NCBI GenBank assembly: GCA_903937035.1
Contig: CAIZXS010000016.1
Span: 1-62,308, forward strand
Reading direction: 5' to 3'
Length of the DNA stretch: 62,308 nucleotides
Source: an uncultured bacterium
Lineage (GTDB): Bacteria; Patescibacteriota; Minisyncoccia; Moranbacterales; UBA2206
Within the stretch, counting starts at the first letter, position 1. Each line of letters starts with the position of its first letter. Positions 1 to 46,545 of the stretch are shown here, piece by piece. The notes beneath the pieces were generated by a model. It was not told the DNA's origin. It saw only the letters and a program-made list of their open reading frames with translations, and did not search any database. Made by a program: the position numbers and the translations under genes.

Positions 1-117
1 ATCACATCTGCCATGCGGTGGCGCCCAATGGTCCAACATTAACTCTCGCGAATCTTTCAAAAGAAGAAATTTTTTGTCGTGCCTTATTAGCACAACTACC
101 CCATGATTTTTTATCAT
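1..117 (-). CDS. Partial CDS (first 39 aa, continues beyond the window start), NUDIX-hydrolase-like N-terminus; third cassette ORF
   Basis: ATG at 117 on the minus strand, open to position 1: MIKNHGVVVLIRHDKKFLLLKDSRELMLDHWAPPHGRCD. The pattern resembles the beta-strand/W-x-PGG lead-in of Nudix folds. It starts 18 nt after the GTTATCG box. It is absent from the ORF track because it is truncated. Confidence 0.4.
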   Translation of the reverse strand, partial: MIKNHGVVVLIRHDKKFLLLKDSRELMLDHWAPPHGRCD

Positions 118-135
118 ATTGTAAAATTTTATTTC

Positions 136-220
136 CGATAACGTTCGCGGATATGAGAAGTTGCGTAGCAATTTGGGTTGAGGCTCTGCAAGAGCCGAAC
201 CTCATATCCGCTGTTAGGCG
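136..220 (-). repeat. attC-like structured repeat, copy 2
   Basis: Minus strand: CGCCTAAC-A-GCGGATATGAG...ACCCAAATTGCTACGCAACTT-CTCATATCCGC-GAAC-GTTATCG. It has an 11-bp perfect stem (147-157/201-211), an internal GGCTCT-GCAA-GAGCC hairpin, and a core shared with copy 1. Confidence 0.65.
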
Positions 221-281
221 AGGGTGAGCGACCAAAGGGAGCGAAAGTGCAACGTCCCCTTGAGTCAAAAAAGACCGCCAG

Positions 282-707
282 TTATTTCGTAACTGTATCA
301 ATCTTTTCAACTGGAAGCCAATCATCCATATTTCCATAATTGCTTTTGTCTATTGCAAAAGATTTTACTTCTTCAGTTTTCTTCAATTCAATTAAAACTA
401 TATACCTTTTTCCAGCCCATTTTTTAAACTGGTTTTCAGATAAATTAAGTTTATCTTGATGCTTTTTTACCAAAGCAACTGATTCTTCTGTAGACATTTT
501 ATCTGAATTAAAAACACTATCGACAATAGATTTAGCTTTAACAGTACCTTCCGCATTATTATTGATAAAGAATAAAATATCGCCTTTATTAACTCTTCCA
601 TAAGGTAATTTTCTTCCAGTTGCACCACGAATAATCATGGTTTTACTTCCATCTAATAGTTTTTCTAGTTCATTTGCTTTTGCATCAAGATAAACTACAT
701 GATCCAT
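282..707 (-). CDS. ASCH/PUA-like domain protein (cassette ORF 2)
   Basis: ORF track 282..761. I prefer the internal ATG at 707 (MDHVVYLD...), which is preceded by AAAGGAGAAAACAAA. The size (141 aa) and the G-x-K-T-x-I-I-R pattern are typical of ASCH domains. Confidence 0.6.
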   Translation of the reverse strand: MDHVVYLDAKANELEKLLDGSKTMIIRGATGRKLPYGRVNKGDILFFINNNAEGTVKAKSIVDSVFNSDKMSTEESVALVKKHQDKLNLSENQFKKWAGKRYIVLIELKKTEEVKSFAIDKSNYGNMDDWLPVEKIDTVTK

Positions 708-780
708 TTTGTTTTCTCCTTTCATAGTTTTAATTGTTAATAATAAAAAAATCTTTTGCAATTAAGGTCTTTTTTGATTT

Positions 781-860
781 CGCCTAACGTATCGGCATTA
801 TCTGAAGTTGCATAGCAATTTGGGTGTAGCGTAGCGAAACCAGATATGCCGTGTTGTGCG
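781..860 (-). repeat. attC-like structured repeat, copy 1
   Basis: Minus strand: CGCACAAC-A-CGGCATATCTG...ACCCAAATTGCTATGCAACTT-CAGATAATGCCG-ATAC-GTTAGGCG. The stem 793-804/841-851 has one unpaired T. It starts 20 nt after the stop of ORF 881..1255. Confidence 0.65.
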
Positions 861-880
861 ATGTTACAAATTCAAAAAAA

Positions 881-1255
881 TTACTTACAATCTTCTTTGC
901 AACTACACTTATCTTCAAATTTTGAATTACACACGCCATCGCCACACGCCAAGCATGTCATACCAGGTTCTACTCCAAAACTATCCTTTGGAATTATAGC
1001 ATTACAATTTTCATCATGTGGTTGTGGTGACATTTTCTTAACTAATCCTGGGCAACATTGAAAAGAATCCTTGTCTATCGTGTCAACATACTTTCCTTCG
1101 CTAATACAGTCGATGGTTGGTTGCAAAGAAGATTGCTTATTGACTAAAAAATCATTATTTTGAACTGGCTTATTTTTACTAGCAAAGAACACAAAGACTA
1201 CTATTGATAAAATAATAACCGAAAGAAAGGCAATAATGATTTTTTTATTCATCAT
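881..1255 (-). CDS. Small membrane-anchored/secreted cysteine-rich protein (cassette ORF 1)
   Basis: ORF track 881..1357. The likely start is MMNKKIIIAFLSVIILSIVVFVFF (signal/anchor) at 1255. The C-terminal half carries 10 Cys (CCPG, CLACGDGVC, CSCKEDC). Confidence 0.6.
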   Translation of the reverse strand: MMNKKIIIAFLSVIILSIVVFVFFASKNKPVQNNDFLVNKQSSLQPTIDCISEGKYVDTIDKDSFQCCPGLVKKMSPQPHDENCNAIIPKDSFGVEPGMTCLACGDGVCNSKFEDKCSCKEDCK

Positions 1256-1281
1256 AAATAATTTTTTTGAATTTGTAATTT

Positions 1282-1345
1282 CGCACAACTCGTTCATATC
1301 CGAAGTGTTTTCGGATATTGTACATAATATTGCTAAATTTGTGAA
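1282..1345 (-). promoter_or_regulatory. attI-like site plus outward (cassette-directed) sigma70-like promoter
   Basis: Minus strand: TTCACA (1345-1340), 17 nt, TACAAT (1322-1317). This is followed by a perfect 9-bp hairpin ATATCCGAA/TTCGGATAT (1296-1318), then GAACGA-GTTGTGCG (1289-1282). The CGGATAT/ATATCCG arms resemble the stem of repeat copy 2. Confidence 0.4.
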
Positions 1346-1387
1346 TATTATGTACACTTTATTTATGCTTAAATTATAGCAAAAAAG

Positions 1388-2206
1388 GTGATGGACGTCT
1401 ATTTGAAAAAATTAGAAGACGAACTTAGATTGAGGAGATATAGCCCAAAAACTATTGATTCTTATCGTACATGTGTCGCTAGCTATCTAAAGACTAAGCA
1501 AAAGGATTTTGAAATTGTTGATGTTGATTCTATAAAACAATACATATTGTCGAAAATAGATGATGGTAAGTCATCTCAGACGACCAATCAGCACTTGCAA
1601 GCAATTAACTTTTTCTGCTGGAATGTTTTGAAGTTTCGGGGAAAAATCGATATTCGCTTTGCCAAGACCCCCAGTAAATTACCGATTGTATTGTCGCGAG
1701 ATGAAATTGGAGAAATATTATCAGTAATTGCCAACGAAAAACATAATTTGATGATAGCGTTGGCGTATTCTGGGGGATTGCGGGTTAGTGAAGTCATCAA
1801 CCTGAAAGTTAAGGACATCTGTTTGTCCGAGTTAGTCGTACATATCAAGGACGCAAAGGGAGGCAAGGATCGGATAACGCTTTTACCGGAAAAGCTAATT
1901 ATTAATATTGAAAAAATAATTGTAGGCAAAAATCTTAACGAGTATGTTTTTGCCAGTGAGCGTGGGGGGCGATTAACCGAAAGAACCGCCCAAAAAGTTT
2001 TTGAAAACGCTCTAGAAAAGGCGGGGATTAAAAAAGAAGCTACGTTTCATTCTTTGCGGCATAGTTTTGCTACACATCTCTTGGAAAATGGTGTCGATGT
2101 GCGATACGTGCAAGAACTGCTAGGGCATGCTAATATTAGAACGACTCAGATTTACACTAAAGTGACAAATCCCGCATTAAGAAAGATTAAAAGCCCATTA
2201 GAATAG
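1388..2206 (+). CDS. Tyrosine site-specific recombinase (Xer/IntI-like, short form)
   Basis: SAM-like N-terminal domain (YSPKTIDSYR). Catalytic motifs LRVSE (Arg), HSLRHSFATHLL (H-x-x-R), LGHANIRTTQIYTKV (His, Tyr). GTG at 1388 or ATG at 1391. Confidence 0.9.
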   Translation: MMDVYLKKLEDELRLRRYSPKTIDSYRTCVASYLKTKQKDFEIVDVDSIKQYILSKIDDGKSSQTTNQHLQAINFFCWNVLKFRGKIDIRFAKTPSKLPIVLSRDEIGEILSVIANEKHNLMIALAYSGGLRVSEVINLKVKDICLSELVVHIKDAKGGKDRITLLPEKLIINIEKIIVGKNLNEYVFASERGGRLTERTAQKVFENALEKAGIKKEATFHSLRHSFATHLLENGVDVRYVQELLGHANIRTTQIYTKVTNPALRKIKSPLE

Positions 2207-2215
2207 CCTAATTTT

Positions 2216-4000
2216 ATGAAAAACATTAGAAATTTCTGCATAATCGCCCATATTGACCATGGAAAGTCCACTTTGGCGGACCGAATGTTAGAAATAACAA
2301 AAACTGTTGAAGCGCGCAAGATGAAAGAGCAGTTGCTCGATCAGATGGATTTGGAGCGCGAACGGGGGATTACGATCAAGATGCAACCGGTGCGAATGGA
2401 ATATGCTGGGCATATTTTGAATTTGATTGACACTCCAGGGCATGTTGACTTTGGTTATGAGGTTTCGCGTTCACTTGCGGCTGTTGAGGGGGCGGTGGTT
2501 TTGGTTGATGCTACGAAGGGCGTGCAAGCGCAAACACTGGCTAATCTCTATCAGGCGATTGAGCATAACTTGGAAATCATTCCCGTGGCCAATAAGATTG
2601 ACTTGCCAAACGCTGATGTGGAAAAAACTAAGGCTGAGATTATGCATATTATTGGTTGCAAGAAAGAAGATATTTTGGAGGTATCGGGTAAGACTGGCGA
2701 GGGCGTGGACAAATTGCTGCAGCGAATCGTGGAAGTTGTGCCTGCGCCGAGTGGCGATGAAAATAAGCCATTGCGCGCACTTGTTTTTGATTCTAAATAT
2801 GATATTTATAAGGGAGTTTTGGCTTATGTTCGCGTAATTGATGGCGGAATTTCAGCCGAAGAAGAAATTTTAATGCTGGCAACTGGCGCCAAAAGTGATG
2901 TGATTGAAGTCGGTTATTTCAAGCCAGATTTTCAAAAAACTCCAAAAATAAAGGTGGGCGAAATTGGCTATATCGCAACTGGTTTCAAAAGTGTGGAATA
3001 CTGCAAAGTGGGGGATACAGTCACCATTTCCAAATTTGAAAAACAAATTGAAAAATTGCCTGGTTATCGTGAAGTTAGTCCGATGGTCTATGCTTCTTTC
3101 TATCCGACATCTGGTGATGATTATAATTTAATGCGCGATGCCCTTTCTAAATTGAAGTTGAACGACGCTGCTTTTGTTTTTGAGCCAGAGAGTAATTTGG
3201 CCCTTGGTCGTGGTTTTCGTTGCGGGTTTTTGGGACTGCTTCATCTGGAAATTATCCAGGCTCGCTTGGAAGCAGAATTTGAACTGAGCCCAACCATCAC
3301 CACACCTGGCGTTGTCTATGAAATTCAGCTGACTGGCAAAAATGAAGAAGATCGCTTGAAAGTCTATTCACCGTCAGAATTACCTGACCCATCCGCAATT
3401 GAGGCAATCTTTGAGCCCTACGTTAACTTGGAGATTATTTCTCCATCAAATTATTTGGGAGCAATTATGGAAATGATGCAAAATACACGAGCTGAATATC
3501 TTGATACAGAATATCTCAATAGTGAACGGATGATTTTGAAGTTTAACTGTCCCTTAACGGATGTAATCACTAATCTGCACGATGATCTCAAGAGCGCTTC
3601 CTCTGGTTATGCTTCAATGAACTATGAACTTTCTAACTACCGGGCCAATGATTTGGTTAAATTGGATATCATAATCGCCGAAGAACGAGTAGAAGCGTTT
3701 TCACGGATTGTTCCTAAAATTTGGGCTCATAGTGAAGGCAAGCGGATTGTCGAAAAACTGAAGGATTCTATTCCGAGACAAAATTTTCAAATTGCTATCC
3801 AAGCTGCGATTGGTGGAAAGGTGCTGGCACGCGAAACTGTGAAAGCTTTTCGCAAAGATGTGATCAGTGGGCTTTATGGGGGAGATATTACGCGCAAAAG
3901 AAAGCTTTTGGAAAAGCAGAAAAAAGGCAAAAAGAAGATGAAAAACATCGGCAAAGTAACCATCCCTTCTGAAGCTTTTCTGGCTGTATTGAAGAAATAA
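2216..4000 (+). CDS. lepA: Translation elongation factor 4 (LepA)
   Basis: NFCIIAHIDHGKSTLADR, DTPGHVDF, NKIDL, and the characteristic LepA C-terminal domain; 594 aa. Confidence 0.95.
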   Translation: MKNIRNFCIIAHIDHGKSTLADRMLEITKTVEARKMKEQLLDQMDLERERGITIKMQPVRMEYAGHILNLIDTPGHVDFGYEVSRSLAAVEGAVVLVDATKGVQAQTLANLYQAIEHNLEIIPVANKIDLPNADVEKTKAEIMHIIGCKKEDILEVSGKTGEGVDKLLQRIVEVVPAPSGDENKPLRALVFDSKYDIYKGVLAYVRVIDGGISAEEEILMLATGAKSDVIEVGYFKPDFQKTPKIKVGEIGYIATGFKSVEYCKVGDTVTISKFEKQIEKLPGYREVSPMVYASFYPTSGDDYNLMRDALSKLKLNDAAFVFEPESNLALGRGFRCGFLGLLHLEIIQARLEAEFELSPTITTPGVVYEIQLTGKNEEDRLKVYSPSELPDPSAIEAIFEPYVNLEIISPSNYLGAIMEMMQNTRAEYLDTEYLNSERMILKFNCPLTDVITNLHDDLKSASSGYASMNYELSNYRANDLVKLDIIIAEERVEAFSRIVPKIWAHSEGKRIVEKLKDSIPRQNFQIAIQAAIGGKVLARETVKAFRKDVISGLYGGDITRKRKLLEKQKKGKKKMKNIGKVTIPSEAFLAVLKK

Positions 4001-10145: not shown

Positions 10146-10895
10146 ATGTTTCTAAAGCTGCGTCCATTTTTCTATAGTCTCGTCTTTTTTCTTGGCTTGG
10201 AATTCATTATTTACATTCGCAACAGCCCAAATCTTGTTTTATTGGCAATTCTCGTGCTTCTGATTTTGTCTTTATGGGAAGGGAGACTAATCGGTGAAAA
10301 ATGGAGATTTTCCATTTTGCCAATATTTTTCACACTCTCTTCTGCCTCTTTGCTGTATCTAATAACCCTTGCCTATGAACAGCAGATTTTCATTGTACTT
10401 GCGTCCGCAATGAACTACTTGGCGCTATTTGGCGCCTATCGCCTCAGGAAATATGAAAAGGATCAAACGGCGAAAGGCATGAACATGGCAGCTTCATCTG
10501 CTACGATTTTCTTCACCTACACCAGTACCTACGGACTATATCTGAATTTTCTTGTCCCACTATATGTCCTAATGTTAGTATATTTTTTTAGCACTCTTTT
10601 GGTAAGCTATCAATATTTTTCTATTATCAAAAACGATGGGAAAAAACTCGTGATGGTTTACAGCTTTCTCCTTGGCCTGGCAATGACGGAGATAGTTTGG
10701 GCGATGAATTTTTGGCCTTTTGGGTATTTGACCACTGGGGTAATTGCGCTTATACTTTACTATATGCTGTGGAGTATCGTTCAGGGCTATTTTTTAAACA
10801 TGTTAAGCCAAAAAAGGGCTATAATGAACGTGCTATTTTTTTCCATTTTGATTTTAATGGTTCTCTTGACTTCAAAGTGGATCCCGGTTATTTAA
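10146..10895 (+). CDS. Polytopic membrane protein, unknown function
   Basis: About 7 hydrophobic helices. I recognise no motif. Confidence 0.6.
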   Translation: MFLKLRPFFYSLVFFLGLEFIIYIRNSPNLVLLAILVLLILSLWEGRLIGEKWRFSILPIFFTLSSASLLYLITLAYEQQIFIVLASAMNYLALFGAYRLRKYEKDQTAKGMNMAASSATIFFTYTSTYGLYLNFLVPLYVLMLVYFFSTLLVSYQYFSIIKNDGKKLVMVYSFLLGLAMTEIVWAMNFWPFGYLTTGVIALILYYMLWSIVQGYFLNMLSQKRAIMNVLFFSILILMVLLTSKWIPVI

Positions 10896-10920
10896 TTGAT
10901 AAAATATATAACTTATATTT

Positions 10921-12084
10921 ATGAGTAAAACTAAGGAAATTTTGATTATTCTTGTGATTATTATAGTAAGTGGATTAAGTGGCATAATCGCTAATCGCTA
11001 TATTTTTCCACGCCTAGCCATGACAAAGTTTTTTGGCAAATATGATTTCATCAAAAAATCGACTGAAAATATTACGGTAATCAATAAGACTGAGCAAGTA
11101 TTCATCAAAGAAGACTCTTCGATAAACAAGATTGTCAGTCAAGTAACCTCGTCAGTGGTAAATATCACATCCTATGCTGCGCCTGAAAAAAACGCTCTAT
11201 CCGGAAAAAATACTAATACCACAACACAACTAGTGATAAAAAGCGGCACCGGATTGATCGTGGCAAGTGACGGCTTGATCGTTACCTACGCCAGCGCAAT
11301 TATTCCGGAAAATGCTAAATATAAAGTAATAGTGAGTGATAAAAATATTTATGATGCAACGCTCATTGAAATTGATTCATATAGTAATTTAGCTTTTCTA
11401 AAGATCAATGCCAGCAATCTTTCCGTTGCTTCTTTTGCAAACTCAGACGAAGCAAAACCTGGAGAAAAAATTATTGCGATTGGAAACGACTTACCAGCAA
11501 GTGCTCCGTTTTTCGCAGCTGGAATATTAAGTAGCTTTAATCCGTCGTATAATTTGTCAGAAAAAACAATTGCTTCATCGGAAAAATTAGAGGGAGTTTT
11601 TGAGATTGATAATTCTCGACAGAATCGTTACCTTGGTGGCCCAGTAGTGGATTACTCGGGTCAAATTATCGGTATTACGGGTTCGGTGCGCAGAGATAAT
11701 GCGGATAGCTTTTTCCAAATTCCTTCTAATAAAGTAAAACTCGTAATAGAGAAGGAGCTGCGGAAGGAATTGAGTATGAATTTATTGCTGGGCATATATT
11801 ATATTTCTATCGATAAGGCATATGCTTTGATTAATAATTTGCCGAGTGAGACGGGAGCGCAAATCTATTCTCCTTCTGGTCAACAGGGACTCTCAGTCAT
11901 TGCCAACTCCCCGGCGGATATTGCCGGACTAAAGATCAATGATATTATTACAGAAGTTTCCGGAGAAAAAATTACAATCGAAAAATCACTGCCAGATCTC
12001 CTCTACAAGCATAAAAAAGGTGAAGAGATTGAGCTTACTATCTTGAGAAATTCACAAGAATTGAAAATAAAGATTCAAATGTAG
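10921..12084 (+). CDS. HtrA-like pseudoprotease (trypsin fold plus PDZ, catalytic triad lost)
   Basis: Collinear with the 6185..7519 HtrA, but VTNKHV becomes [14 protein letters not shown] becomes SNLAFLKI and PGNSGGP becomes NRYLGGP. The PDZ domain is retained (NSPADIAGLKINDII). Confidence 0.75.
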   Translation: MSKTKEILIILVIIIVSGLSGIIANRYIFPRLAMTKFFGKYDFIKKSTENITVINKTEQVFIKEDSSINKIVSQVTSSVVNITSYAAPEKNALSGKNTNTTTQLVIKSGTGLIVASDGLIVTYASAIIPENAKYKVIVSDKNIYDATLIEIDSYSNLAFLKINASNLSVASFANSDEAKPGEKIIAIGNDLPASAPFFAAGILSSFNPSYNLSEKTIASSEKLEGVFEIDNSRQNRYLGGPVVDYSGQIIGITGSVRRDNADSFFQIPSNKVKLVIEKELRKELSMNLLLGIYYISIDKAYALINNLPSETGAQIYSPSGQQGLSVIANSPADIAGLKINDIITEVSGEKITIEKSLPDLLYKHKKGEEIELTILRNSQELKIKIQM

Positions 12085-12096
12085 ACTCCCAAAAGT

Positions 12097-14157
12097 ATGC
12101 AAATTAAAAAACAATACCATGCAATATTATTACTCGTCGCTGTTCTGATCATATATTTCTCCTTTGGACTCACGCATCTGACTAAGTTTGTCTCATTTGA
12201 TGAACATTATTGGCTATATAATTCTGATGATGATCGAATTCACCAATATTGGAATGCGATTTTGAGCGGGGACTGGGAGGATACGCGGATCAATGATAAG
12301 CCAGGCATTACTTTGGCCTACACATCAGGAATTGCGCTGCTTTTTAATAATGAGTCTTCCCGAGGGCATGTTCTCTATACGGACAAAACAGTAAAAATTT
12401 TTGATCCGGAGGTCACTGAAAAGATAAATTTACTTTTTCGTCTACCAATACTGCTAATAACTGGTTTTTTTGCTTTTTTCTTTTTCTGGATCTTGAAAAA
12501 AATTACTGGAAATGAGTGGTTAGCACTTTTGGCAGTCGCCTTGACATACTTATCTCCCGTGATTATTGGAATCTCGCAAATAGTTAATCCAGATTCAATG
12601 TTTTGGCTTTTTTCTTTTGCTTCAATGCTTTCTTATGTTGCATGGCTGAAAATATTTGAAAAAAAATATTTCTGGATGACGCTAGTGTTTTTTGGTCTTT
12701 CGATGGCAAGCAAATATGTTAGCATCATTTTGATTCCATTTTTTCTTTTCATGTCTTCCGCGTTCTACCTCTTTGAGTTCTCTGCTTGGAAAGATGGGCG
12801 GGGGGTCTTGAAGAAAATCGTTTTTCGAAATAGTCTTGCTTATATAGGAATCATTGCCGGCGGTTTTTTGATTTTTGCGCTAATGATGCCGGCCGTCTTT
12901 GTTGAACCTAAATATTTCTATGAAGGAACGATTGGATTTCCGGGAATGGCGCCAATTTTTTGGCTATGCATGCTCGTAAATGCCATTATCGCTGCTGATG
13001 CCTACTTTAACAAAAATCGCATATTGCATTTTGCATTGGAAAAGTTGCAAATTGTTAAAAGAGTCGCGCCCAAGCTGATAGCATTCGCCCTCCTTTCAAG
13101 CATTGCCTTTGTGCTTATCAATTGGATGCTTCGTCATCGATTAATTGATCTTTCGGATGTTTCGTTTGACATGAAGAGGAGACCTGAATTTGGAAATCTA
13201 CCCTACGCCTATCGATTTGTCATGGAAGCTGTGCCACTCGCTTTTGCCTCATTGCCGCTAGTTCTTTTTTCTATGTTGTATTTGTGGTCAAAATCTATTT
13301 TTCAAAAAGTAAGACATGATTATTTAGCATTTATATTTTCAGCTTTTATCGCAATTTTCTATCTCGCTGTGATTAAGGAAGGATTGGTCTTAACAATTCG
13401 CTACAGCATCATCCTATATCCTATTTCCGCCTTGCTTGCAGCAATCGCTCTTGATAATTTTTTCAAAGCGTGGCAGGAAGGAGAAGGGGATGGGCGGAAA
13501 TTTTTGCTTTTTATTGCATTCCTTTTTTCCATCATTTTACTGCTATTTGGAGCGTCTTCATTTGAACAAGCCAAGATAATCAGTGAAGCTAACTTGCGTA
13601 TTTTTTATAATTTCCACAGAATAATTTTCGCCTTGATTGTTATTGTGGTTGTAGCCATATCAACCAGAACTGTTTATGCGCTTATCTCTTGGAAGAAATT
13701 GCGCCAATTGTCATATTTGGGAATTTTCCTTCTTGTGATCAGCTCAAGTTTTGTTAGCATTTGGCTTATAAAACCGTATTATTTTAGCTATAGCAATGAG
13801 CTGCTGCCAAAAAAATATATAATCACGAGTGGCTGGGGCTATGGTGGCTATGAGATAGCAAAGACCATGAACGCCTTACCCAATGCTAAAAATACCACTG
13901 TCTGGGCCGATTCTTATGGATTTTGTGAGTTTTATGTGGGAAAATGCATTCATAAAACAAAGATAAGAACAGATATCTATCCGATTGATTACTTCTATTC
14001 GACATTGCAAAGTCAGTTACGCCCAGAATATATTGGCACTCCTTATCGAGAAGACGGAAAAGCGATAGCTAATATTGAAATTGATGGTCGCTACAAAAAT
14101 TATGTCAGAATATTTAAGGCCAAAAAGGTGATACAAGAAAATAGCGTCAACGAATAA
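12097..14157 (+). CDS. GT-C fold glycosyltransferase, family 39-like (PMT/ArnT-type), paralogue A
   Basis: About 13 TM helices. First-loop acidic motif FDEHYW and RINDKPG. Paralogous to 14907..16736 over the full length. Confidence 0.75.
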   Translation: MQIKKQYHAILLLVAVLIIYFSFGLTHLTKFVSFDEHYWLYNSDDDRIHQYWNAILSGDWEDTRINDKPGITLAYTSGIALLFNNESSRGHVLYTDKTVKIFDPEVTEKINLLFRLPILLITGFFAFFFFWILKKITGNEWLALLAVALTYLSPVIIGISQIVNPDSMFWLFSFASMLSYVAWLKIFEKKYFWMTLVFFGLSMASKYVSIILIPFFLFMSSAFYLFEFSAWKDGRGVLKKIVFRNSLAYIGIIAGGFLIFALMMPAVFVEPKYFYEGTIGFPGMAPIFWLCMLVNAIIAADAYFNKNRILHFALEKLQIVKRVAPKLIAFALLSSIAFVLINWMLRHRLIDLSDVSFDMKRRPEFGNLPYAYRFVMEAVPLAFASLPLVLFSMLYLWSKSIFQKVRHDYLAFIFSAFIAIFYLAVIKEGLVLTIRYSIILYPISALLAAIALDNFFKAWQEGEGDGRKFLLFIAFLFSIILLLFGASSFEQAKIISEANLRIFYNFHRIIFALIVIVVVAISTRTVYALISWKKLRQLSYLGIFLLVISSSFVSIWLIKPYYFSYSNELLPKKYIITSGWGYGGYEIAKTMNALPNAKNTTVWADSYGFCEFYVGKCIHKTKIRTDIYPIDYFYSTLQSQLRPEYIGTPYREDGKAIANIEIDGRYKNYVRIFKAKKVIQENSVNE

Positions 14158-39645: not shown

Positions 39646-40104
39646 TCATCTAAACCTCACTTTCTTATACTTCAAAAGAAAATAAAGCAAAAAATAAAAA
39701 ACTAAAGCAATCACAATTGAGACAATAAAAAATCCGACAAAAAATGGTGTGAGGATTTTGAGAAAAATTGTTTCGGTGAGAAAAAATTTCCAGCCTAAGC
39801 TATAAGTATTCCAAAAACTACTTGTAAGCGATTCTGGACTAACATGAAAAACTAAACCACCGAAAATAGCAGCCAAGGGCAAAACAATAAAAGTCGTCCA
39901 CATATTACTCGCCAAGACTCCAGCTGTCGCCGAAAGACGATTAAAGCGCAAAAAATAGGCAGTAAGAAGTGTCGTTCCAATGCCTTCGCCCGGCATAATG
40001 CCCCAAAACACTCCCAAAGCAAAACCCGCCGCGACTTTGTGCGGAGTGTCATCAATTAAAAAAAACTTCTTTATGTATTGTTTGGTTTTTGTAATGTAGC
40101 GCAT
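39646..40104 (-). CDS. DUF2062-family membrane protein
   Basis: DTPHKVAAGFALGVFWGIMP...LASNMWT. Confidence 0.7.
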   Translation of the reverse strand: MRYITKTKQYIKKFFLIDDTPHKVAAGFALGVFWGIMPGEGIGTTLLTAYFLRFNRLSATAGVLASNMWTTFIVLPLAAIFGGLVFHVSPESLTSSFWNTYSLGWKFFLTETIFLKILTPFFVGFFIVSIVIALVFYFLLYFLLKYKKVRFR

Positions 40105-40120
40105 AAAAATTTAAAAATAG

Positions 40121-40291
40121 TGTCATCCTGAGCGAAGTCTGTAATCAGACGCAGTCGACCGCGTGCCGCCTTAGCTTTAGCGGTGGAGCAAGGATCTACT
40201 TTCCAATATCCAAGTCGCTACTATTTTTTTTAAAGCCTACGATAATAGTAGGTAGATTCTTCGACTTCGCTCCGCTACGCTCAGAATGACA
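40121..40291. repeat. MITE-like palindromic element, copy b (right arm degenerate)
   Basis: The left arm (40121-40200) carries a 32-nt insert. The right arm is GTAGATTCTTCGACT...CTCAGAATGACA. Central TACGATAA. Confidence 0.75.
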
Positions 40292-40305
40292 ACAAGAAGA
40301 AATCA

Positions 40306-41430
40306 TTAACCCTTCTTCACCACTAAACCACTCGTCTTTTTATCTTCAATTTTGGCTTTTTCAATTTCCTTCTTGACCGGCGCTGGCAAAAGTTCAGTAA
40401 TATTTTTGAGCGCGGTTTTGTCGAGTTTTAAGACCTCCTGCCACCTTCCTAGAGGCTCTAGGATCGCTTGAATCTTTTCTTCGTCATATTTGTAGGTAAC
40501 GCGTAGACTCCTCGCTATAATGCCCTGACTGCCAAATACTCGTTCGACGCCTTCTTGTCCCATATACGCTACAATATCTCCTTGAATCTTCGCCAAGCGA
40601 TCTTTCGTGAGTGACATGGCTGATTTGAGATCAATATATTCGTCGATTAGTCCAGCAATCTCTTCTGTATCAATTTTTCTCGCTTCTTTGAATTTATGTC
40701 TCCACATTGGACAGATATTTTGATAGCCACACCAATCGCAAAGTGGTGAAATCGTTGGTTCGAATTTTCCCTCCTCAATCAGCTTAATCATCTCGAGAAA
40801 CACTGCCTCATTTTCTTTAAGTTGTTCTTCAGTGCGAGACGCTGAAAGTTTCATGCCGTGTTTCAAAAAATAGAGACTAACCTTTAATTTGCCCAAATTT
40901 TTTCGCTCCTCGGGATAATAGGAAAGAAAAGCGGCCAAATAGACTGAGAGCTGCATATCACCCTCGACACGATCTTGCGTGGGCATTTTTTTAGCTGTTT
41001 TATAATCAATAATCTCAAAACCATCTACTGTGCGATCGATGCGATCAATGATGCCAGAAATAATATGCTTATTTTCTTTCTCTCCAATCTCAATCTGAAA
41101 TCGTGATTCCAAATTCACAATATTAAAATCAGCCGGATTATTTTGCCTGAAATAATCCTGAATAATTTTCACACCCTGCACAAAAGCAGCGCGTTCTTCT
41201 TCAGGAGAATCAAAAACAGCTGGGTTCCAAGAATTGGAAAAAAACTCCATCGCTTGTTCTAGATTGGGGGAGAGGATGCCTGGGGTGTGGATGAATTTCA
41301 TTGTCGAATGCAAAATCGTCCCAAACACGGCTTCCTTGGATTTAGGTGTCTTGATTCGATCAATTTGCTGATACTTATACTTCAATGGACAGCTTTTATA
41401 GGTATCAAGGGCTGAATATGAAATACGCAT
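40306..41430 (-). CDS. PD-(D/E)XK nuclease (RecB/AddB/Cas4-like) with C-terminal Cys cluster
   Basis: ISYSALDTYKSCPLKYKY N-terminal Cys, IIDRIDR...EIIDYKT (D...E-x-K core), C-terminal CDWCGYQNIC. ATG at 41430 is preferred over the TTG at 41460. Confidence 0.8.
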   Translation of the reverse strand: MRISYSALDTYKSCPLKYKYQQIDRIKTPKSKEAVFGTILHSTMKFIHTPGILSPNLEQAMEFFSNSWNPAVFDSPEEERAAFVQGVKIIQDYFRQNNPADFNIVNLESRFQIEIGEKENKHIISGIIDRIDRTVDGFEIIDYKTAKKMPTQDRVEGDMQLSVYLAAFLSYYPEERKNLGKLKVSLYFLKHGMKLSASRTEEQLKENEAVFLEMIKLIEEGKFEPTISPLCDWCGYQNICPMWRHKFKEARKIDTEEIAGLIDEYIDLKSAMSLTKDRLAKIQGDIVAYMGQEGVERVFGSQGIIARSLRVTYKYDEEKIQAILEPLGRWQEVLKLDKTALKNITELLPAPVKKEIEKAKIEDKKTSGLVVKKG

Positions 41431-41545
41431 AAGGCTTATTCTTAGGCTATTTAGCCTCAATATTATAGCATAATTGCTAAAAATTTGACAGATTCACCAA
41501 AGAGGCTATACTTAAAGCATACTAAATTGGTATGCATTAAAGATT

Positions 41546-41929
41546 ATGCAATTCTCAACTAAGGCTGAATATGGTTTGCGGGCAATGGTTGCTTTGGCGC
41601 GTGCGTATCCGCAGCAAAAAAATATCACCGAAATATCAGAAGAAGAAAATATTTCTGCCAAATATCTGGAAACATTGATTGGAAAATTACGGAAAAATAA
41701 TTTGGTTAAAAGTCAGAAAGGCAAAAGTGGGGGATATACCCTCATCAAAAATCCTAAATTTATCTCAGCAGGAGAAATTATTGAAATTATGGAAGGCCCG
41801 ATTATTTCCAAGTGCGATGGAAGTAATTGTATGAAAGCAAAGATCTGTGCGTCCAGTCTCGTTTGGAACAAGCTCGCGTTTCAAATTAAAAAAACACTAT
41901 TTGCGATTAAATTAAATGAATTAATATAG
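41546..41929 (+). CDS. Rrf2-family transcriptional regulator (IscR-like)
   Basis: MQFSTKAEYGLRAMVALA wHTH. Three clustered Cys (CDGSNCMKAKIC). Lies upstream of iscS-iscU. Confidence 0.85.
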   Translation: MQFSTKAEYGLRAMVALARAYPQQKNITEISEEENISAKYLETLIGKLRKNNLVKSQKGKSGGYTLIKNPKFISAGEIIEIMEGPIISKCDGSNCMKAKICASSLVWNKLAFQIKKTLFAIKLNELI

Positions 41930-41962
41930 TGTAGGTACTTGCGCATTTGCCTAAAAAAACCA

Positions 41963-42140
41963 TGTCATCCTGAGCGAAGTCTGTACTCAGACGCAGTCGA
42001 AGGATCTACCAACCGTAACCCATAGCTTTCTATTCAATAGCAGGGCTTACGATAATGGAAAGTAGATCCTTGCTCCACCGCTAAAGCTAAGGCGGCACGC
42101 GGTCGACTGCGTCTGATTACAGACTTCGCTCAGGATGACA
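41963..42140. repeat. MITE-like palindromic element, copy c
   Basis: The left arm is TGTCATCCTGAGCGAAGTCTGTACTCAGACGCAGTCGAAGGATCTAC. The right arm (42061-42140) is the exact reverse complement of 40121-40200. Confidence 0.8.
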
Positions 42141-42165
42141 AATTTAATTCAAGCGTGTAAATCCT

Positions 42166-43404
42166 ATGAATAAACTTATGGCTAACAAAAAAATATATCT
42201 CGATTACGCAGCGACAACACCAGTGGACGCTGAAGTGCTACAAACGATGCTGCCATATTTTAGTGAAGAATTTGGCAATGCCTCATCTCTGCATTCTTTT
42301 GGAAGAACTGCGGCCGATGCTGTCTTTGCGGCTAGAGAAAGTGCGGCGCATTTTTTCAAATGCTCGGAAGAAGAAATCATCTTCACTAGTGGTGCGACTG
42401 AATCAAATAATCTCGCCATTAAAGGCGTGCTGCGCGCGTACAATAAAAATAAAAAAAACAAAGGAAAGATTCCGCATATCATTACAACTGTTTTTGAGCA
42501 CAGTTGCGTGCTAAAAACCTGCCAAAAACTAGAAAAAGAGGGTAGCACTGAAGTAACCTATCTTCCAGTTTATGCTGATGGGATCATTAAGGCATCTGAC
42601 GTGGAAAAATCCATCAAAGAGAATACATTACTCATATCTATTATGCATGTAAACAACGAAATCGGCACAGTACAACCAATCGCACAAATTGGAAAACTTT
42701 TGGCCCACCTTAACGAAAAGCGAGAAGAAAAAATAATTTTCCATACCGACGCAACGCAAGCTGTGGCCTATTTCGACACAAATGTCAAAAGATTAGGCGT
42801 TGATTTGCTTTCGATGTCGGCACATAAAATATATGGTCCCAAGGGTGCTGGAATGCTATATGTCAAAAAAGGCACTAAAATTACTCAAATTCAAGATGGT
42901 GGAGCGCAAGAATTTGCTCTGCGCGCCGGAACGCTCAACTCAACTGGCATCGTTGGCCTAGGTAAAGCTATTGAGGTACTAGAAAAAAGCAAGAAAAAAG
43001 AAGTCAAAAAAATCAAAGAACTGCGCGATTATTTGATTAAAAAAGTTTTGAAAGAAATTCCTGGTACTCGCTTAAACGGTTCACGCTCAAAAAGATCACC
43101 CAATAATGCCAATTTCAGCTTTTCTGATGTGGAAGGGGAGAGCCTTCTATTATATCTCGACGCTGATGGAATCGCTGCTTCTACTGGCTCAGCTTGCTCT
43201 TCGGGATCACTAAGTCCCTCTCATGTCCTACTTGCTCTTGGACTAAAGCCAGAGCAAGCTCACGGATCACTGCGAGTGAGTCTCGGAAAATATACGACAA
43301 AAAAGGAGCTGGTCATTTTTGTGACAAAACTAAAAAAAGTCCTTGAGAAGTTACGAAAAGTTTCAGGAGAAATATTGAAAGAATATTATTCGAAGAAAAA
43401 ATAA
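42166..43404 (+). CDS. iscS: Cysteine desulfurase (IscS/NifS type)
   Basis: YLDYAATTP, SAHKIYGPKG (PLP Lys), GSACSSG (active Cys). Confidence 0.9.
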   Translation: MNKLMANKKIYLDYAATTPVDAEVLQTMLPYFSEEFGNASSLHSFGRTAADAVFAARESAAHFFKCSEEEIIFTSGATESNNLAIKGVLRAYNKNKKNKGKIPHIITTVFEHSCVLKTCQKLEKEGSTEVTYLPVYADGIIKASDVEKSIKENTLLISIMHVNNEIGTVQPIAQIGKLLAHLNEKREEKIIFHTDATQAVAYFDTNVKRLGVDLLSMSAHKIYGPKGAGMLYVKKGTKITQIQDGGAQEFALRAGTLNSTGIVGLGKAIEVLEKSKKKEVKKIKELRDYLIKKVLKEIPGTRLNGSRSKRSPNNANFSFSDVEGESLLLYLDADGIAASTGSACSSGSLSPSHVLLALGLKPEQAHGSLRVSLGKYTTKKELVIFVTKLKKVLEKLRKVSGEILKEYYSKKK

Positions 43405-43446
43405 ACTTTAATTTTTTATCAACGCAAATATTTCGCGCTTAAATAT

Positions 43447-43830
43447 ATGAACTATTCTAAAGAGGTGATTAATCATTTCACATCTCCTCATAATCAGGGA
43501 GTAATTTCTGACCCGGATGGCGTTGGCATGGTTGGCAATCCGACCTGCGGAGACCTCATGAAAATCTACATCAAAGTCAAAAAAGATGCTAAAAGAGGGG
43601 AGATTATTTCTGCCATTAAATTTGAAACACTTGGTTGTGCCAGTGCGATTGCGACGTCTTCAATGATTACCGATCTTGCAAAAGGCAAAACTATTAAAGA
43701 GGCCAGCAAAATTACTCGCGATGATGTGGCAAAAGCCCTGAATGGCTTGCCACCAATTAAAATGCACTGTTCCAATCTAGCAAGTGAAGCCTTGCTCGCT
43801 GCAATCAAAAACTATAAAGAGCAAAAATAA
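43447..43830 (+). CDS. iscU: Fe-S cluster scaffold protein IscU/NifU-like
   Basis: GNPTCGD, LGCASAIA, MHCSNLA. Confidence 0.9.
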   Translation: MNYSKEVINHFTSPHNQGVISDPDGVGMVGNPTCGDLMKIYIKVKKDAKRGEIISAIKFETLGCASAIATSSMITDLAKGKTIKEASKITRDDVAKALNGLPPIKMHCSNLASEALLAAIKNYKEQK

Positions 43831-43837
43831 CAAAAAA

Positions 43838-44407
43838 ATGGAAAATAATAGTAGCTTACTCCAAAAAACTAAAGAACTCATGCTAGGAATCATTGCGCAA
43901 AATGGTTCTGACCCATGGTGTCTCACAAGTCATCTCCCTGAAGCCCAAAAGTGGGCACGCTTCCTCACTAAAAATCATCCAGAGGCAGATAGCGAAGTAG
44001 TCCTCTTTTCCGTGTGGCTACATGACAGTGGGCATTACCCAATTACTCCCGAAGACCATGCAATCAAAAGCGAAAAAATTGCCAAAGATTTCTTGGAAAA
44101 AGAAAAATTTGATCCAGCAAAATTAGCACTTGTTTTGCATTGCGTGAGAGCACATAGATGTAAAGATATTATGCCCAGAACCTTGGAAGCAAAAATTCTA
44201 GCTTGCGCTGATTCGGCGAGCCACATGACCGACCCATCGATGTATCCGAGTATGATCGCCGAAGGAAGAGCAGTAGCTGCACTTGAAAAATTAGAAAGAG
44301 ATTATCGAGACACCGAATCATTTCCAGAAGCTCAGAAAAAACTCAAAGACTTCTATGACGCCTGGAAAAAGATACTAACGGCCTATGTTGATTTAAATTT
44401 AGAATAA
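43838..44407 (+). CDS. HD-domain phosphohydrolase
   Basis: WLHDSGH (H...HD) and CVRAH. ATG at 43838 avoids overlap with iscU. Confidence 0.7.
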   Translation: MENNSSLLQKTKELMLGIIAQNGSDPWCLTSHLPEAQKWARFLTKNHPEADSEVVLFSVWLHDSGHYPITPEDHAIKSEKIAKDFLEKEKFDPAKLALVLHCVRAHRCKDIMPRTLEAKILACADSASHMTDPSMYPSMIAEGRAVAALEKLERDYRDTESFPEAQKKLKDFYDAWKKILTAYVDLNLE

Positions 44408-44424
44408 TTTATTTTTTACACATT

Positions 44425-44862
44425 ATGCCAAAGAAACAAACAACTACCGAAACTCGCTTCGTAAGAAACGAAGATGAACAAGCACTCCTAGCTTTGCTCA
44501 AGGAAATGACAGACAAGTCAATTAACTTTCAGATTGAAAATGTCATTGGAGACAAGAACTGTCATGCAATTGTTTTGGAAAACGAAAGTGGAAACGTTAT
44601 TGGTTTTGGCGCCTTAGTAGTTCACCTAGTTCCCGCTTTTGGTTATGTGGGAAGCATCGAAGATGTCGTCGTAGGGGAGACCTTTCGTGGACAAGGCCTA
44701 GGAGGAAAGCTGATGGATGAGCTCATTAGAATTGCCAAGGATCAAAAGGTCATTCACATTGATCTAACTAGTAGACCAGAAAGAGTCGCATCCCATAAAC
44801 TTTATTTGAAAAAAGGATTTTTTTTAAGAGACACCGGAGTATATCGATTGAACTTGGAATAG
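44425..44862 (+). CDS. GNAT-family N-acetyltransferase
   Basis: VVGETFRGQGLGGKLMDELI. Confidence 0.8.
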   Translation: MPKKQTTTETRFVRNEDEQALLALLKEMTDKSINFQIENVIGDKNCHAIVLENESGNVIGFGALVVHLVPAFGYVGSIEDVVVGETFRGQGLGGKLMDELIRIAKDQKVIHIDLTSRPERVASHKLYLKKGFFLRDTGVYRLNLE

Positions 44863-45015
44863 AGAATAGTTAGAAAAATAGAATAATAAAAAATTAAAAA
44901 CCACCATTCTAAAATTCGTTTTATACGAGAGGGAGGTGTGGTTTTTTGGTTGCTGGCGTCCCTTCGGGAAATATTGACCGTGTCGCACAATGTAACTTTT
45001 GCGACACTGCCTGTT

Positions 45016-45041
45016 CTAAGAAAGGCGCCTACTGTGGCGCT
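45016..45041 (-). terminator. Possible terminator for the 45202..46539 gene
   Basis: Minus strand: AGCGCC-ACAGTA-GGCGCC followed by TTTCTT. It lies 160 nt after the stop, so the call is weak. Confidence 0.3.
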
Positions 45042-45201
45042 AAACAAAAAATTGTAATTGAATCAATAGTCTGATATACGGGCACCTCTCTACTCTTTTA
45101 AATTGCTCCTAGCTCAATTTTGAAGCTCGTTTTTTTGAGGTTTTGCATATATCCACGTCCACTACCCACTCTTTCAATATTACAAAAAAATCAGAACCAA
45201 G

Positions 45202-46539
45202 TTAGTTATAAATAATCATTTGATCAATCGACACTCCACTATCAACACCTAATTTTCCCACGAGCGATTTTGATGTGTTAAGATAAAGATTCGCTCCGAA
45301 ATATGGATCATGTACAATATAATCTTTATTATCTTTTCCTGTGACAACAACATAATGACCGCCACCACGACTGCGCTTAATATAGACAATCACAGGATTT
45401 CCTTTTTTAATTTCCGCATCAACAGTTGACCATTTGATATTGCCATGGGAACTTGATGATACCAGTTTAATACCTGGGGACCAGGTAGCCGGCCACTTAA
45501 TCAGGTCGTAGTAAAATATTTTCTGAGATGCCATTGATCCTGGATTGATACTTGCTCCTTTTTCGCGAAATACCATCGAGACTGCGGTCACCGCACACCC
45601 ATAAGATTTCATAAGTGTCTTTGAATTTCCGATTTTTTTGTCTCCCCAGCGCGAATCTTTTTGGGAATAATACCAGCTAGTTGACGCAAGATTACTACTA
45701 GGTTTGGGATAGCTACTGACGCTTGAACTGACATCACCAAGATTACTTGCCGCACTAAAATCCAACAGCTCTTGCTTTTGTGCTTCAACACGTGCAAGCA
45801 ACTGCTTATATTTCGCTTCCTCACCTTGAGTTTGCACCAGCAGATTTGTTTTTTGATTTTCTGTCGCTTGCAAGTTTTCTTTCTTATCGATCAATGTCTC
45901 CTTTGCCTTGTCACTTTCTTCTTTCTTTTGTATTAAACTAGCTTGATTATCAACAAGTTTCTGTCTTGTTTGTTTAATTTCTGTTAGTAGTCGAGATACC
46001 TTATCGCCAGATTGTTCGATATAATCTAGTTGATTTATAGCTTCCGAAAATGCCTTGCCAGCGAGAACTAGGGGTAAAACGCCCTGCTGATCGTATTCAT
46101 AATAAGATTGCATGAGCCCTGCAAGAATTTTTCTTTGAAAATCAACCTTAAATTCCCCCTCCTTGATTTCACCAGACAAATCATCGATTTGCTGTGCAAG
46201 TGTCTGCACCTTTTTTTGAGTTTCTTGTAATTGCGCCAGGGTCTTCGCTTGTTCGTTATCAATATTATCAAGTTGTCCAGCTAGTGCGTCCTGCTGCTTA
46301 TTCTTCAATTTAATCAGATCTTCATACACTTTCGCCTTTTTCTCAAGACTTTCACAATCGTCCACACAGTCGTTTTTACACTTCTTCTTGCCACTGTCAT
46401 CGCTGGGATATTGAGCTACACATTTAGACTCGCAGGTATCATCGCAAGAACTTCCACTGGCAAATTCTTTTGGCAAAACCAAAAAAACAGAAATGATAAG
46501 CAAAAAAAATATTTTTTTATTTTTTTTAAATTTTTGCAT
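45202..46539 (-). CDS. Secreted coiled-coil protein with C-terminal C39-like cysteine peptidase domain (putative cell-wall hydrolase)
   Basis: Signal peptide, Cys-rich stretch (CDDTCESKC...CKNDCVDDC), about 200 aa of coiled coil, then SYGCAVTAVSMV...GGGHYVVVTG...VHDPY. Confidence 0.65.
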   Translation of the reverse strand: MQKFKKNKKIFFLLIISVFLVLPKEFASGSSCDDTCESKCVAQYPSDDSGKKKCKNDCVDDCESLEKKAKVYEDLIKLKNKQQDALAGQLDNIDNEQAKTLAQLQETQKKVQTLAQQIDDLSGEIKEGEFKVDFQRKILAGLMQSYYEYDQQGVLPLVLAGKAFSEAINQLDYIEQSGDKVSRLLTEIKQTRQKLVDNQASLIQKKEESDKAKETLIDKKENLQATENQKTNLLVQTQGEEAKYKQLLARVEAQKQELLDFSAASNLGDVSSSVSSYPKPSSNLASTSWYYSQKDSRWGDKKIGNSKTLMKSYGCAVTAVSMVFREKGASINPGSMASQKIFYYDLIKWPATWSPGIKLVSSSSHGNIKWSTVDAEIKKGNPVIVYIKRSRGGGHYVVVTGKDNKDYIVHDPYFGANLYLNTSKSLVGKLGVDSGVSIDQMIIYN

Positions 46540-46545
46540 TGTTTT

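Follow-up and report, generated by a model that had tools for sequence, protein, structure and literature searches.

We analyzed the 62,308-nt contig CAIZXS010000016.1 (GCA_903937035.1) of an uncultured Patescibacteria bacterium, referred to below in its full length as the window. One end of it encodes a tyrosine recombinase divergent from a series of small, co-oriented open reading frames (ORFs), the first two of which are each followed by a structured repeat, and a preliminary description made from the sequence alone had seen there an integron-like gene-cassette array. Read on the minus strand, as the array is throughout, the hairpin, the short boxes, ORF1, ORF2, and both repeats do lie where they had been placed, and the spacings reported for them are correct: 20 nt from the ORF1 stop to repeat 1, 61 nt from the ORF2 stop to repeat 2, and units of 501 and 646 bp. 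The features are listed here, the repeats with their scores in a covariance model.

1391-2206, plus strand: tyrosine recombinase gene, 271 amino acids (aa), XerA/IntI-like, without the IntI-specific insertion; PF00589 and an N-terminal SAM-like domain.
1345-1317, minus strand: promoter-like TTCACA-17-TACAAT pointing into the array, a candidate cassette promoter; 10 of 12 consensus matches.
1278-1318, minus strand: attI-like site, read from the sequence as hairpin/left arm ATATCCGAA-aacac-TTCGGATAT (arms at 1318-1310 and 1304-1296), spacer GAACGA (1295-1290), closing-type box GTTGTGCG (1289-1282), and AAAT.
788-1288, minus strand: cassette 1, 501 bp, from TTGTGCG... to ...ATACG; edges placed by the box rule and by a duplicated unit in array L035 (both described below).
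881-1252, minus strand: ORF1, 123 aa, no family assigned; the start is that of the gene callers, the preliminary one being 1255.
850-887: distal arm of a 38-nt inverted repeat around ORF1, 89% complementary to its partner at 1255-1292.
777-864, minus strand: attC-like repeat 1, 83 bits, E = 1.6e-17; CGCACAAC (860-853), A, arm CGGCATATCTG, arm CAGATaATGCCG, ATAC, GTTAGGCG (788-781), AAAT.
142-787, minus strand: cassette 2, 646 bp; GTTAGGCG (788-781) and CGCCTAAC (220-213) are exact reverse complements.
282-707, minus strand: ORF2, 141 aa, no family assigned; gene callers favour 147 aa from 725.
131-224, minus strand: attC-like repeat 2, 80.8 bits, E = 5.8e-17; CGCCTAAC (220-213), A, GCGGATATGAG, arm CTCATATCCGC, GAAC, GTTATCGG (142-135), AAAT.
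1-141, minus strand: start of cassette 3, with ORF3 (117-1), the 5' end of a 132-aa NUDIX gene.

The two repeats are the sole matches of the covariance model in the window, and they share a 21-mer that occurs twice in the 62 kb and in none of 100 shuffles. The product of ORF1, a gene call shared by 10 independent contigs, has a hydrophobic segment at its N terminus and a Cys-rich C-terminal part, while the ATG of ORF2 at 707 is preceded by AGGAGA and a further pair of 12-nt arms (766-777 with 265-276) surrounds this ORF. The promoter-like motif, which may drive expression of the cassettes, is present as claimed and is kept in three relatives (L091, L095, and L096), yet such motifs are not enriched, seven being found against 6.5 expected in shuffles. 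A PADLOC search with ten array proteins returned a weak candidate match for the NUDIX protein only.

The array extends past the edge of the window. The recombinase protein, whose ATG is at 1391, is encoded on 14 public contigs, one of which (L001, 100 kb) is identical to the window over 12 kb and carries the array on for another ~6 kb, to a total of 12 co-oriented ORFs, among them genes for NUDIX, glyoxalase, DUF5680, and MazG-type proteins. ORF3, rightly taken to be truncated by the window edge, is complete there (132 aa, PF00293). Past the array, genes for MurJ and a DUF4012 protein lie on the other strand. A long inverted repeat unrelated to the cassette repeats (L001 3648-3832, TTGTCATTCTGAGCG ... 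CGCTCAGGATGACAA) lies at the array's far end, ahead of MurJ. Several independent assemblies of the source organism break no more than ~140 nt after repeat 2, and three or four contigs of metagenome-assembled genomes end within the attI box.

Each repeat begins with an opening box, nnnnnAAC, and ends with a closing box, GTTnnnnn, and the preliminary description had noticed that an opening box is the reverse complement of the closing box upstream of its own ORF. Both 8-nt matches in the window are exact, and more repeats lie beyond its edge that follow the rule: on L001 the repeat after the NUDIX gene opens with CCGATAAC, the reverse complement of GTTATCGG, and the following one with CACATAAC, which agrees with GTTGTGTG at seven of eight bases. 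We scored the five variable bases of each opening box against the closing box before it, the one that ends the same repeat, and random pairs. The window and L001 junctions give 5/5, 5/5, 5/5, and 4/5. Across arrays from other genomes, all five bases match at 34 of 65 junctions, compared with 3.2% of random pairs. For the 17 Patescibacteria arrays alone, the 42 junctions include 18 with five matches and 13 with four (mean 4.05, compared with 2.81 when the closing box of the same repeat is used and 2.38 in random pairing), and arrays from other phyla have 5/5 at 16 of 23 junctions. An independent set of IMG/VR contigs, fetched by a loose pattern and kept outside the building of the covariance model, behaves alike, with 5/5 at 20 of 43 junctions, 4/5 at 11, and a mean of 4.0 versus 2.65 for the own box.

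Complementarity exceeds what had been noticed at first, reaching 19-38 nt past the boxes (38 nt at 89% around ORF1). Its usual pattern is nine matched bases, a conserved mismatch (AAAT versus ACAT), and four to 15 more matches; the mismatch includes a G.T wobble on the bottom strand only. Each unit has flanking arms of its own, which are not common across units. In a Cytophagales array (L067 13693-17647), one box is constant (GTTGTTCA, or TGAACAAC on the other strand) and the other varies, unlike the chain rule seen elsewhere.

The box rule alone cannot assign a repeat to the preceding or the following ORF, but a Gracilibacteria array (L035) decides the matter. A 243-nt unit is present there twice, 100% identical, the identity beginning exactly at GTTAGCAC and ending at ...GGACGTTA (GTT…GTTA), while the sequences to either side are unrelated. 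The mobile unit is therefore bounded by two successive closing boxes, like an integron cassette, which favours the earlier reading of an ORF plus its repeat as a cassette. These edges also dispose of the idea that each ORF is a miniature transposon inserted in a repeated target, which we regard as having next to no chance of being right: inverted repeats of 19-38 nt do bracket every ORF, but the end of the L035 unit is the next closing box rather than the opening box, so that the entire downstream repeat belongs to it, no transposase was found, and the inverted repeats are unit-specific. A comparison of flanks around similar repeat bodies was mostly uninformative; the exceptions were L035 and the pair L026 and L053, which match each other over 53 nt upstream.

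The repeats share the layout ACAT-[nnnnnAAC]-A-[~11-nt arm]-GGTTC-hairpin-CCCAAATT-hairpin-AACTTC-[~11-nt arm]-nAAC-[GTTnnnnn]-AAAT. In a 22-site alignment they are imperfect palindromes with R''/L''/L'/R' boxes, in which AAC and GTT are invariant or nearly so and nine of the 11 L-stem pairs show compensatory changes. The internal loop has 1 nt on one side and 4 nt on the other, and bulges are mostly absent or else lie on the 3' arm of the top strand. When both strands of the repeats were folded, as had been suggested, the bottom strand was the more stable: repeat 2 folds at -18.5 and -20.3 kcal/mol (z of -5.0 and -5.5), and the joined ends of cassette 1 form one long hairpin of -35.1 kcal/mol on the top strand and -38.6 kcal/mol on the bottom strand (z ~ -9.4), while repeat 1 in its array context reaches merely -9.3 and -11.9 kcal/mol. 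The bulge-poor 1 x 4 loop fits an enzyme without the helix that contacts extrahelical bases, and the asymmetric loop, together with the one-strand wobble, may set polarity. At the Patescibacteria loci, all matches of the covariance model lie upstream of the recombinase on the opposite strand; DPANN archaeal loci gave no significant match, the one weak hit being in L046 (E = 0.076). The model superseded two palindrome scans, of which the looser (172 and 179 matches per strand) did no better than a one-strand shuffle (187) and the stricter found 73 versus 27.

Between the array and the recombinase lies the attI-like site, a single instance in the whole window, in which a 6-nt spacer separates the left arm from an 11-nt right arm. 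Of 32 Patescibacteria loci, 25 have a corresponding motif, (A/G)TA-n5-9-GTTnnnnn-nAAT, placed 46-152 nt upstream of the start codon of the recombinase, compared with 9% of random 300-nt pieces; judged by eye, the consensus is TTCGnATAT-AAACGA-GTTnnnnnAAAT. The 3' arm of the repeats, CTTCAGATAT, resembles the left arm of attI, so that the repeat end CTTCAGATAT...GTTnnnnnAAAT can be set against CTTCGGATAT-GAACGA-GTTGTGCGAAAT in attI. The consensus resembles Escherichia coli dif, GGTGCGCATAA-TGTATA-TTATGTTAAAT, as do the parts of the attI, with TTATGTGAAAT set against TTATGTTAAAT, and if attI is read as dif, G|TT would fall at the boundary between spacer and right arm. Six loci (L016, L013, L018, L020, L021, and L041) have a second near-palindromic box (~TTCGTATAATATACAA) between attI and the recombinase start, ~40 nt past the attI left arm, which could be a second binding site or an operator.

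The predicted product of the recombinase gene, which is complete, is an intact tyrosine recombinase with its catalytic residues, including the active-site motifs HSLRHSFATHLL and LGH...IYT. Its best NCBIfam matches are XerA_Arch (216.9 bits) and the integron integrase family TIGR02249 (215.5 bits), followed by XerD (183) and XerC (178). The TIGR02249 match is below the cutoff of 265 and comes in two stretches that skip profile positions ~178-240. Likewise, the protein aligns end to end with XerA (5hxy), its best full-length sequence match, and in two pieces with VchIntIA (2a3v), where its residues 182-193, 12 in all, replace residues 187-240 of IntI. The IntI-specific insertion of ~42 residues is thus absent. 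This additional domain around patch III defines integron integrases and is reported to be necessary for their activity. An AlphaFold model from a 16-sequence alignment was too poor to be used (predicted local distance difference test score of 55). Homologues number in the thousands, those that are 73-95% identical coming from proteins labelled Moranbacteria, Wolfebacteria, and Pacebacteria, and in the sources they go under XerD or integrase. When one genome per species was scanned, identity was 46-66% within Patescibacteria, ~40% in DPANN archaea, and ~35-44% in Bacteroidota, Spirochaetota, and Paenibacillaceae. By a Moraniibacteriota array (L040 9666-10540), the recombinase is split into overlapping ORFs of 114 and 177 aa, through a frameshift or a sequencing error.

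Variation at the level of cassettes, which the preliminary description had expected in relatives, is evident. In genomes whose recombinases are 86-95% identical, the downstream genes lepA, DivIC, SurA-like, ferredoxin, and HtrA are kept, as is ClpB in two of three, whereas the upstream cassette genes are unrelated. One relative carries a HaeIII-type restriction-modification pair, an SduA_C (Shedu-like) protein, and an HD protein, and another SET, two methylases with a BpuJI-type nuclease, and RhuM. The cassettes with the defense-type genes among these (the HaeIII-type pair, the SduA_C protein, and the nuclease with its methylases) lie at L091 6350-9739 and L096 4358-7792, the BpuJI-type nuclease and the two methylases sharing a single 3.7-kb unit. 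One sample (L006) has another cassette directly after repeat 1, the switch falling right past GTTAGnCGAAAT. Look-ups of ORF1 and ORF2 returned the standard context alone, apart from contig L010, at the end of which (1-31, ~708-738 of the window) a 100% identical ORF2 has a different 28-nt leader before its ATG, either variation within the cassette or a chimeric contig end. In L096, lepA itself is unusual (10824-13124): it encodes 766 aa versus 594, with a PDDEXK_3 nuclease-like domain between two GTP_EFTU matches, which suggests an insertion in an essential gene.

The family is wider than the Patescibacteria. The same covariance model detects arrays downstream of, and co-oriented with, recombinase homologues of 345-381 aa, which have an N-terminal extension of ~100 residues and no IntI insertion, in Flavobacteriia, Cytophagales, Paenibacillaceae (including Saccharibacillus kuerlensis DSM 22868), and Spirochaetota. 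Such arrays lie at L042 11308-12682, L057 11400-17336, L062 12142-15153, L072 5731-10089, and L075 11440-12998, with further ones in L047, L052, L061, L067, L070, L071, L078, and L088. In five of these loci, the opening box of the first repeat is the exact complement of an attI-like box after the recombinase gene. Dense runs of repeats also occur in IMG/VR contigs filed as viral (L123 1624-3747; L130, L148, and L122, which belong to one 39-kb contig; L150; L166; and L168), for example 11 repeats in 2.1 kb, many of them 63 nt long with scant or no coding space between. The stretches fetched contain no recombinase, and they may be misfiled cellular islands or cassette reservoirs.

On these comparative grounds the locus is a real integron-like system with a Xer-type recombinase, whose activity in recombination we infer. 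We consider it highly probable that it is part of a chromosomal, integron-like platform for gene cassettes, namely the end next to the recombinase, and that in this platform the XerA/IntI-like enzyme most likely acts on attI and the repeats. In the mechanism that we propose, the recombinase would join the attI-like site (left arm TTCGGATAT, 6-nt spacer, G|TT) and the cassette-end repeats, and the mobile unit would start with the TT of one closing box and finish with the G of the following one, comprising the ORF or ORFs and the downstream repeat. In the excised circle, the 5' end of the cassette (TTnnnnnGAAAT...) would pair with the opening box and its 3' flank, giving a hairpin composed of an R stem, the asymmetric 1 x 4-nt internal loop, and an 11-bp L stem. 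The likely substrate is a folded single strand, probably the bottom one, as in integrons and in CTX-phage integration at dif. The circle junctions to be expected are ...GATAATGCCGATACG|TTGTGCGAAATTACAAATTC for cassette 1 and ...CATATCCGCGAACG|TTAGGCGAAATCAAAAAAG for cassette 2, and deletion of cassette 1 should leave CGGATATGAACGAG|TTAGGCGAAATC.

Several observations weigh against this platform. The insertion that the recombinase lacks is reported to be necessary in canonical IntI, and therefore either the chemistry differs or another enzyme may act; no other tyrosine recombinase was found in the 62-kb window, but ~100 kb of the source genome are covered and a second recombinase may exist elsewhere. 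The distal repeats on L001 are decayed, and some units there have several genes or none. The percentage of paired positions in the covariance model is partly circular, because its sites were picked by a stem criterion. Some of the variation falls off the unit edges or reflects assembly artefacts: L006 has, in addition, two differing bases in repeat 1, within its 3' half, and the divergence of L010 lies inside cassette 2. Finally, no recombination product, be it a circular junction or an empty attI, was seen, and all the evidence is comparative.

One alternative keeps the cassettes and the enzyme and has them recombine through double-stranded dif-like sites, made of the L' arm, the spacer, and the closing box with AAAT, without any folded strand, as proposed for Acinetobacter pdif modules. 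Xer enzymes normally use duplex sites, and both the likeness of the repeat 3' end to attI and an enzyme without the IntI insertion would suit this scheme. It offers no reason, however, for the opening box and its 3' flank to track the 5' end of the cassette over 19-38 nt, nor for the covariation of the L arm or a wobble confined to one strand, and we judge it unlikely.

The recombinase could instead be a housekeeping Xer for chromosome dimer resolution, and the repeats unrelated palindromes such as terminators or repetitive extragenic palindromic (REP)-like elements. XerA is its best structural relative, public sources call its homologues XerD, it is as conserved as LepA, and the attI-like site resembles dif. 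Furthermore, Smyshlyaev et al. (2021, PMC8138268) distinguish 'Cand' and 'integron-like' simple tyrosine recombinases and, in the portions of that paper concerned with candidate phyla, treat the members from these phyla as Xer-related; the 'Cand' subgroup, for which such a housekeeping role is assumed, is described there as class-specific Xer-related enzymes that may stand in for Xer, with no mention of arrays or sites in those portions. Yet 25-29 of 32 loci, from many classes, have an attI-like site and an array next to the recombinase, and GC skew, over the ~20-62 kb covered, is positive on both sides of the array with no switch at the site, a comparison confounded by gene orientation. The box rule and the exact duplication of a unit are not properties of terminators, and a promoter/terminator scan found no T-run terminators; for these reasons the reading of the repeats as terminators was rejected. 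A purely housekeeping enzyme is accordingly quite unlikely in our view, while a dual role in dimer resolution and cassette exchange is possible.

Also very unlikely in our estimation is an ordinary integron with a genuine IntI and canonical attC sites that is merely found in a new phylum. The classic divergent layout, attI by the gene, AAC/GTT boxes that follow the cassette rule, and TIGR02249 among the two best family matches would all agree with it. But the IntI insertion is missing and the score is under the family cutoff, and no Rfam model matches window positions 1-2300 at E <= 1. Moreover, canonical attC sites have five to six unpaired bases per arm between the R and L boxes, and two to three extrahelical bases that are read for strand choice, whereas the loop here is 1 x 4 nt and extrahelical bases are usually absent. 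The term "integron-like" of the preliminary description is therefore right, while strict "integron" is not, because the insertion is lacking and the repeats depart from canonical attC geometry. Those of the refuting outcomes named there that could be checked, such as a lack of further repeats or an invariant gene order, did not occur; action of the recombinase on a dif-like site would not separate the readings, the attI being itself dif-like.

The integron-like platform shares much with sedentary chromosomal integrons such as the Vibrio cholerae superintegron. In both, the recombinase is divergent from co-oriented, mostly promoterless small ORFs, attI adjoins its gene, and the cassettes read away from it; the repeats are imperfect palindromes with ...AAC/GTT... 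boxes and a variable center, resemble each other within an array, and have opening boxes that match the preceding closing box; the bottom strand folds better; and the cargo is of accessory and defense type. Unlike in canonical integrons, the attI is dif-like, the recombinase has no IntI insertion, some units have three to four genes, and the complementarity of the ends spans 19-38 nt versus ~7. With archaeal XerA/dif and bacterial XerCD/dif, the system has in common a simple two-domain recombinase, but here it is linked to a variable cassette array and no skew switch occurs at the site, with the same confounding by gene orientation.

Elements of the CTX-phage type have a folded, single-stranded attP that is recombined with dif by one strand exchange. 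They are a precedent for a Xer enzyme without the IntI insertion that uses a folded hairpin mimicking a duplex site, although they integrate at dif and are not cassette arrays with a recombinase and attI of their own. Acinetobacter pdif modules, too, are discrete gene modules between Xer-type sites in inverted orientation, but those sites are conserved 28-bp duplexes on plasmids, whereas here the arms are unit-specific and a structured repeat closes each unit. Both the definition of integrons and the search for them use the extra domain of the integrase and a set attC geometry. A recombinase without the IntI-defining domain therefore falls outside standard integron definitions, and standard tools would most likely file the arrays, if their sites were detected at all, as attC-site clusters that have no integron integrase (CALINs), from which they differ by the cognate-looking recombinase and attI that adjoin them in most loci. 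Surveys that follow this definition find almost no integrons in Bacteroidetes or Firmicutes, IntegronFinder 2.0 having reported a single complete one for each. Neither the integron surveys nor the literature that we found report integrons in the candidate phyla radiation, and no published description of such arrays in these phyla was found in the literature.

The locus thus presents the same cassette logic with a simpler Xer-like enzyme and differently built sites, and would, if confirmed, widen the known range of cassette platforms. It would also offer a concrete mechanism for the turnover of accessory and defense genes in ultra-small symbiotic bacteria, and natural material for how single-strand hairpin recombination evolved from Xer/dif, which may show how integrons originated. 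Tentatively, and with slightly more doubt than confidence, we propose that the arrays belong to a large class of integrons that has been overlooked and in which XerA-like recombinases do the work without the IntI insertion; the short form is that of Patescibacteria, while Flavobacteriia, Paenibacillaceae, and Spirochaetota have one with an extended N terminus. A stage between Xer/dif and IntI/attC, either intermediate or parallel, could be preserved in their dif-like attI and bulge-free repeats, and for the candidate phyla radiation, with its reduced genomes, the arrays could be a main route by which genes, defense genes included, are gained. Some carriers, such as S. kuerlensis DSM 22868 and several Flavobacterium species, are cultured, which makes the system experimentally accessible.

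Elsewhere in the window, GC skew turns from positive to negative near 42-44 kb (within ~40000-48000), which may mark a change in gene orientation or a replication landmark.

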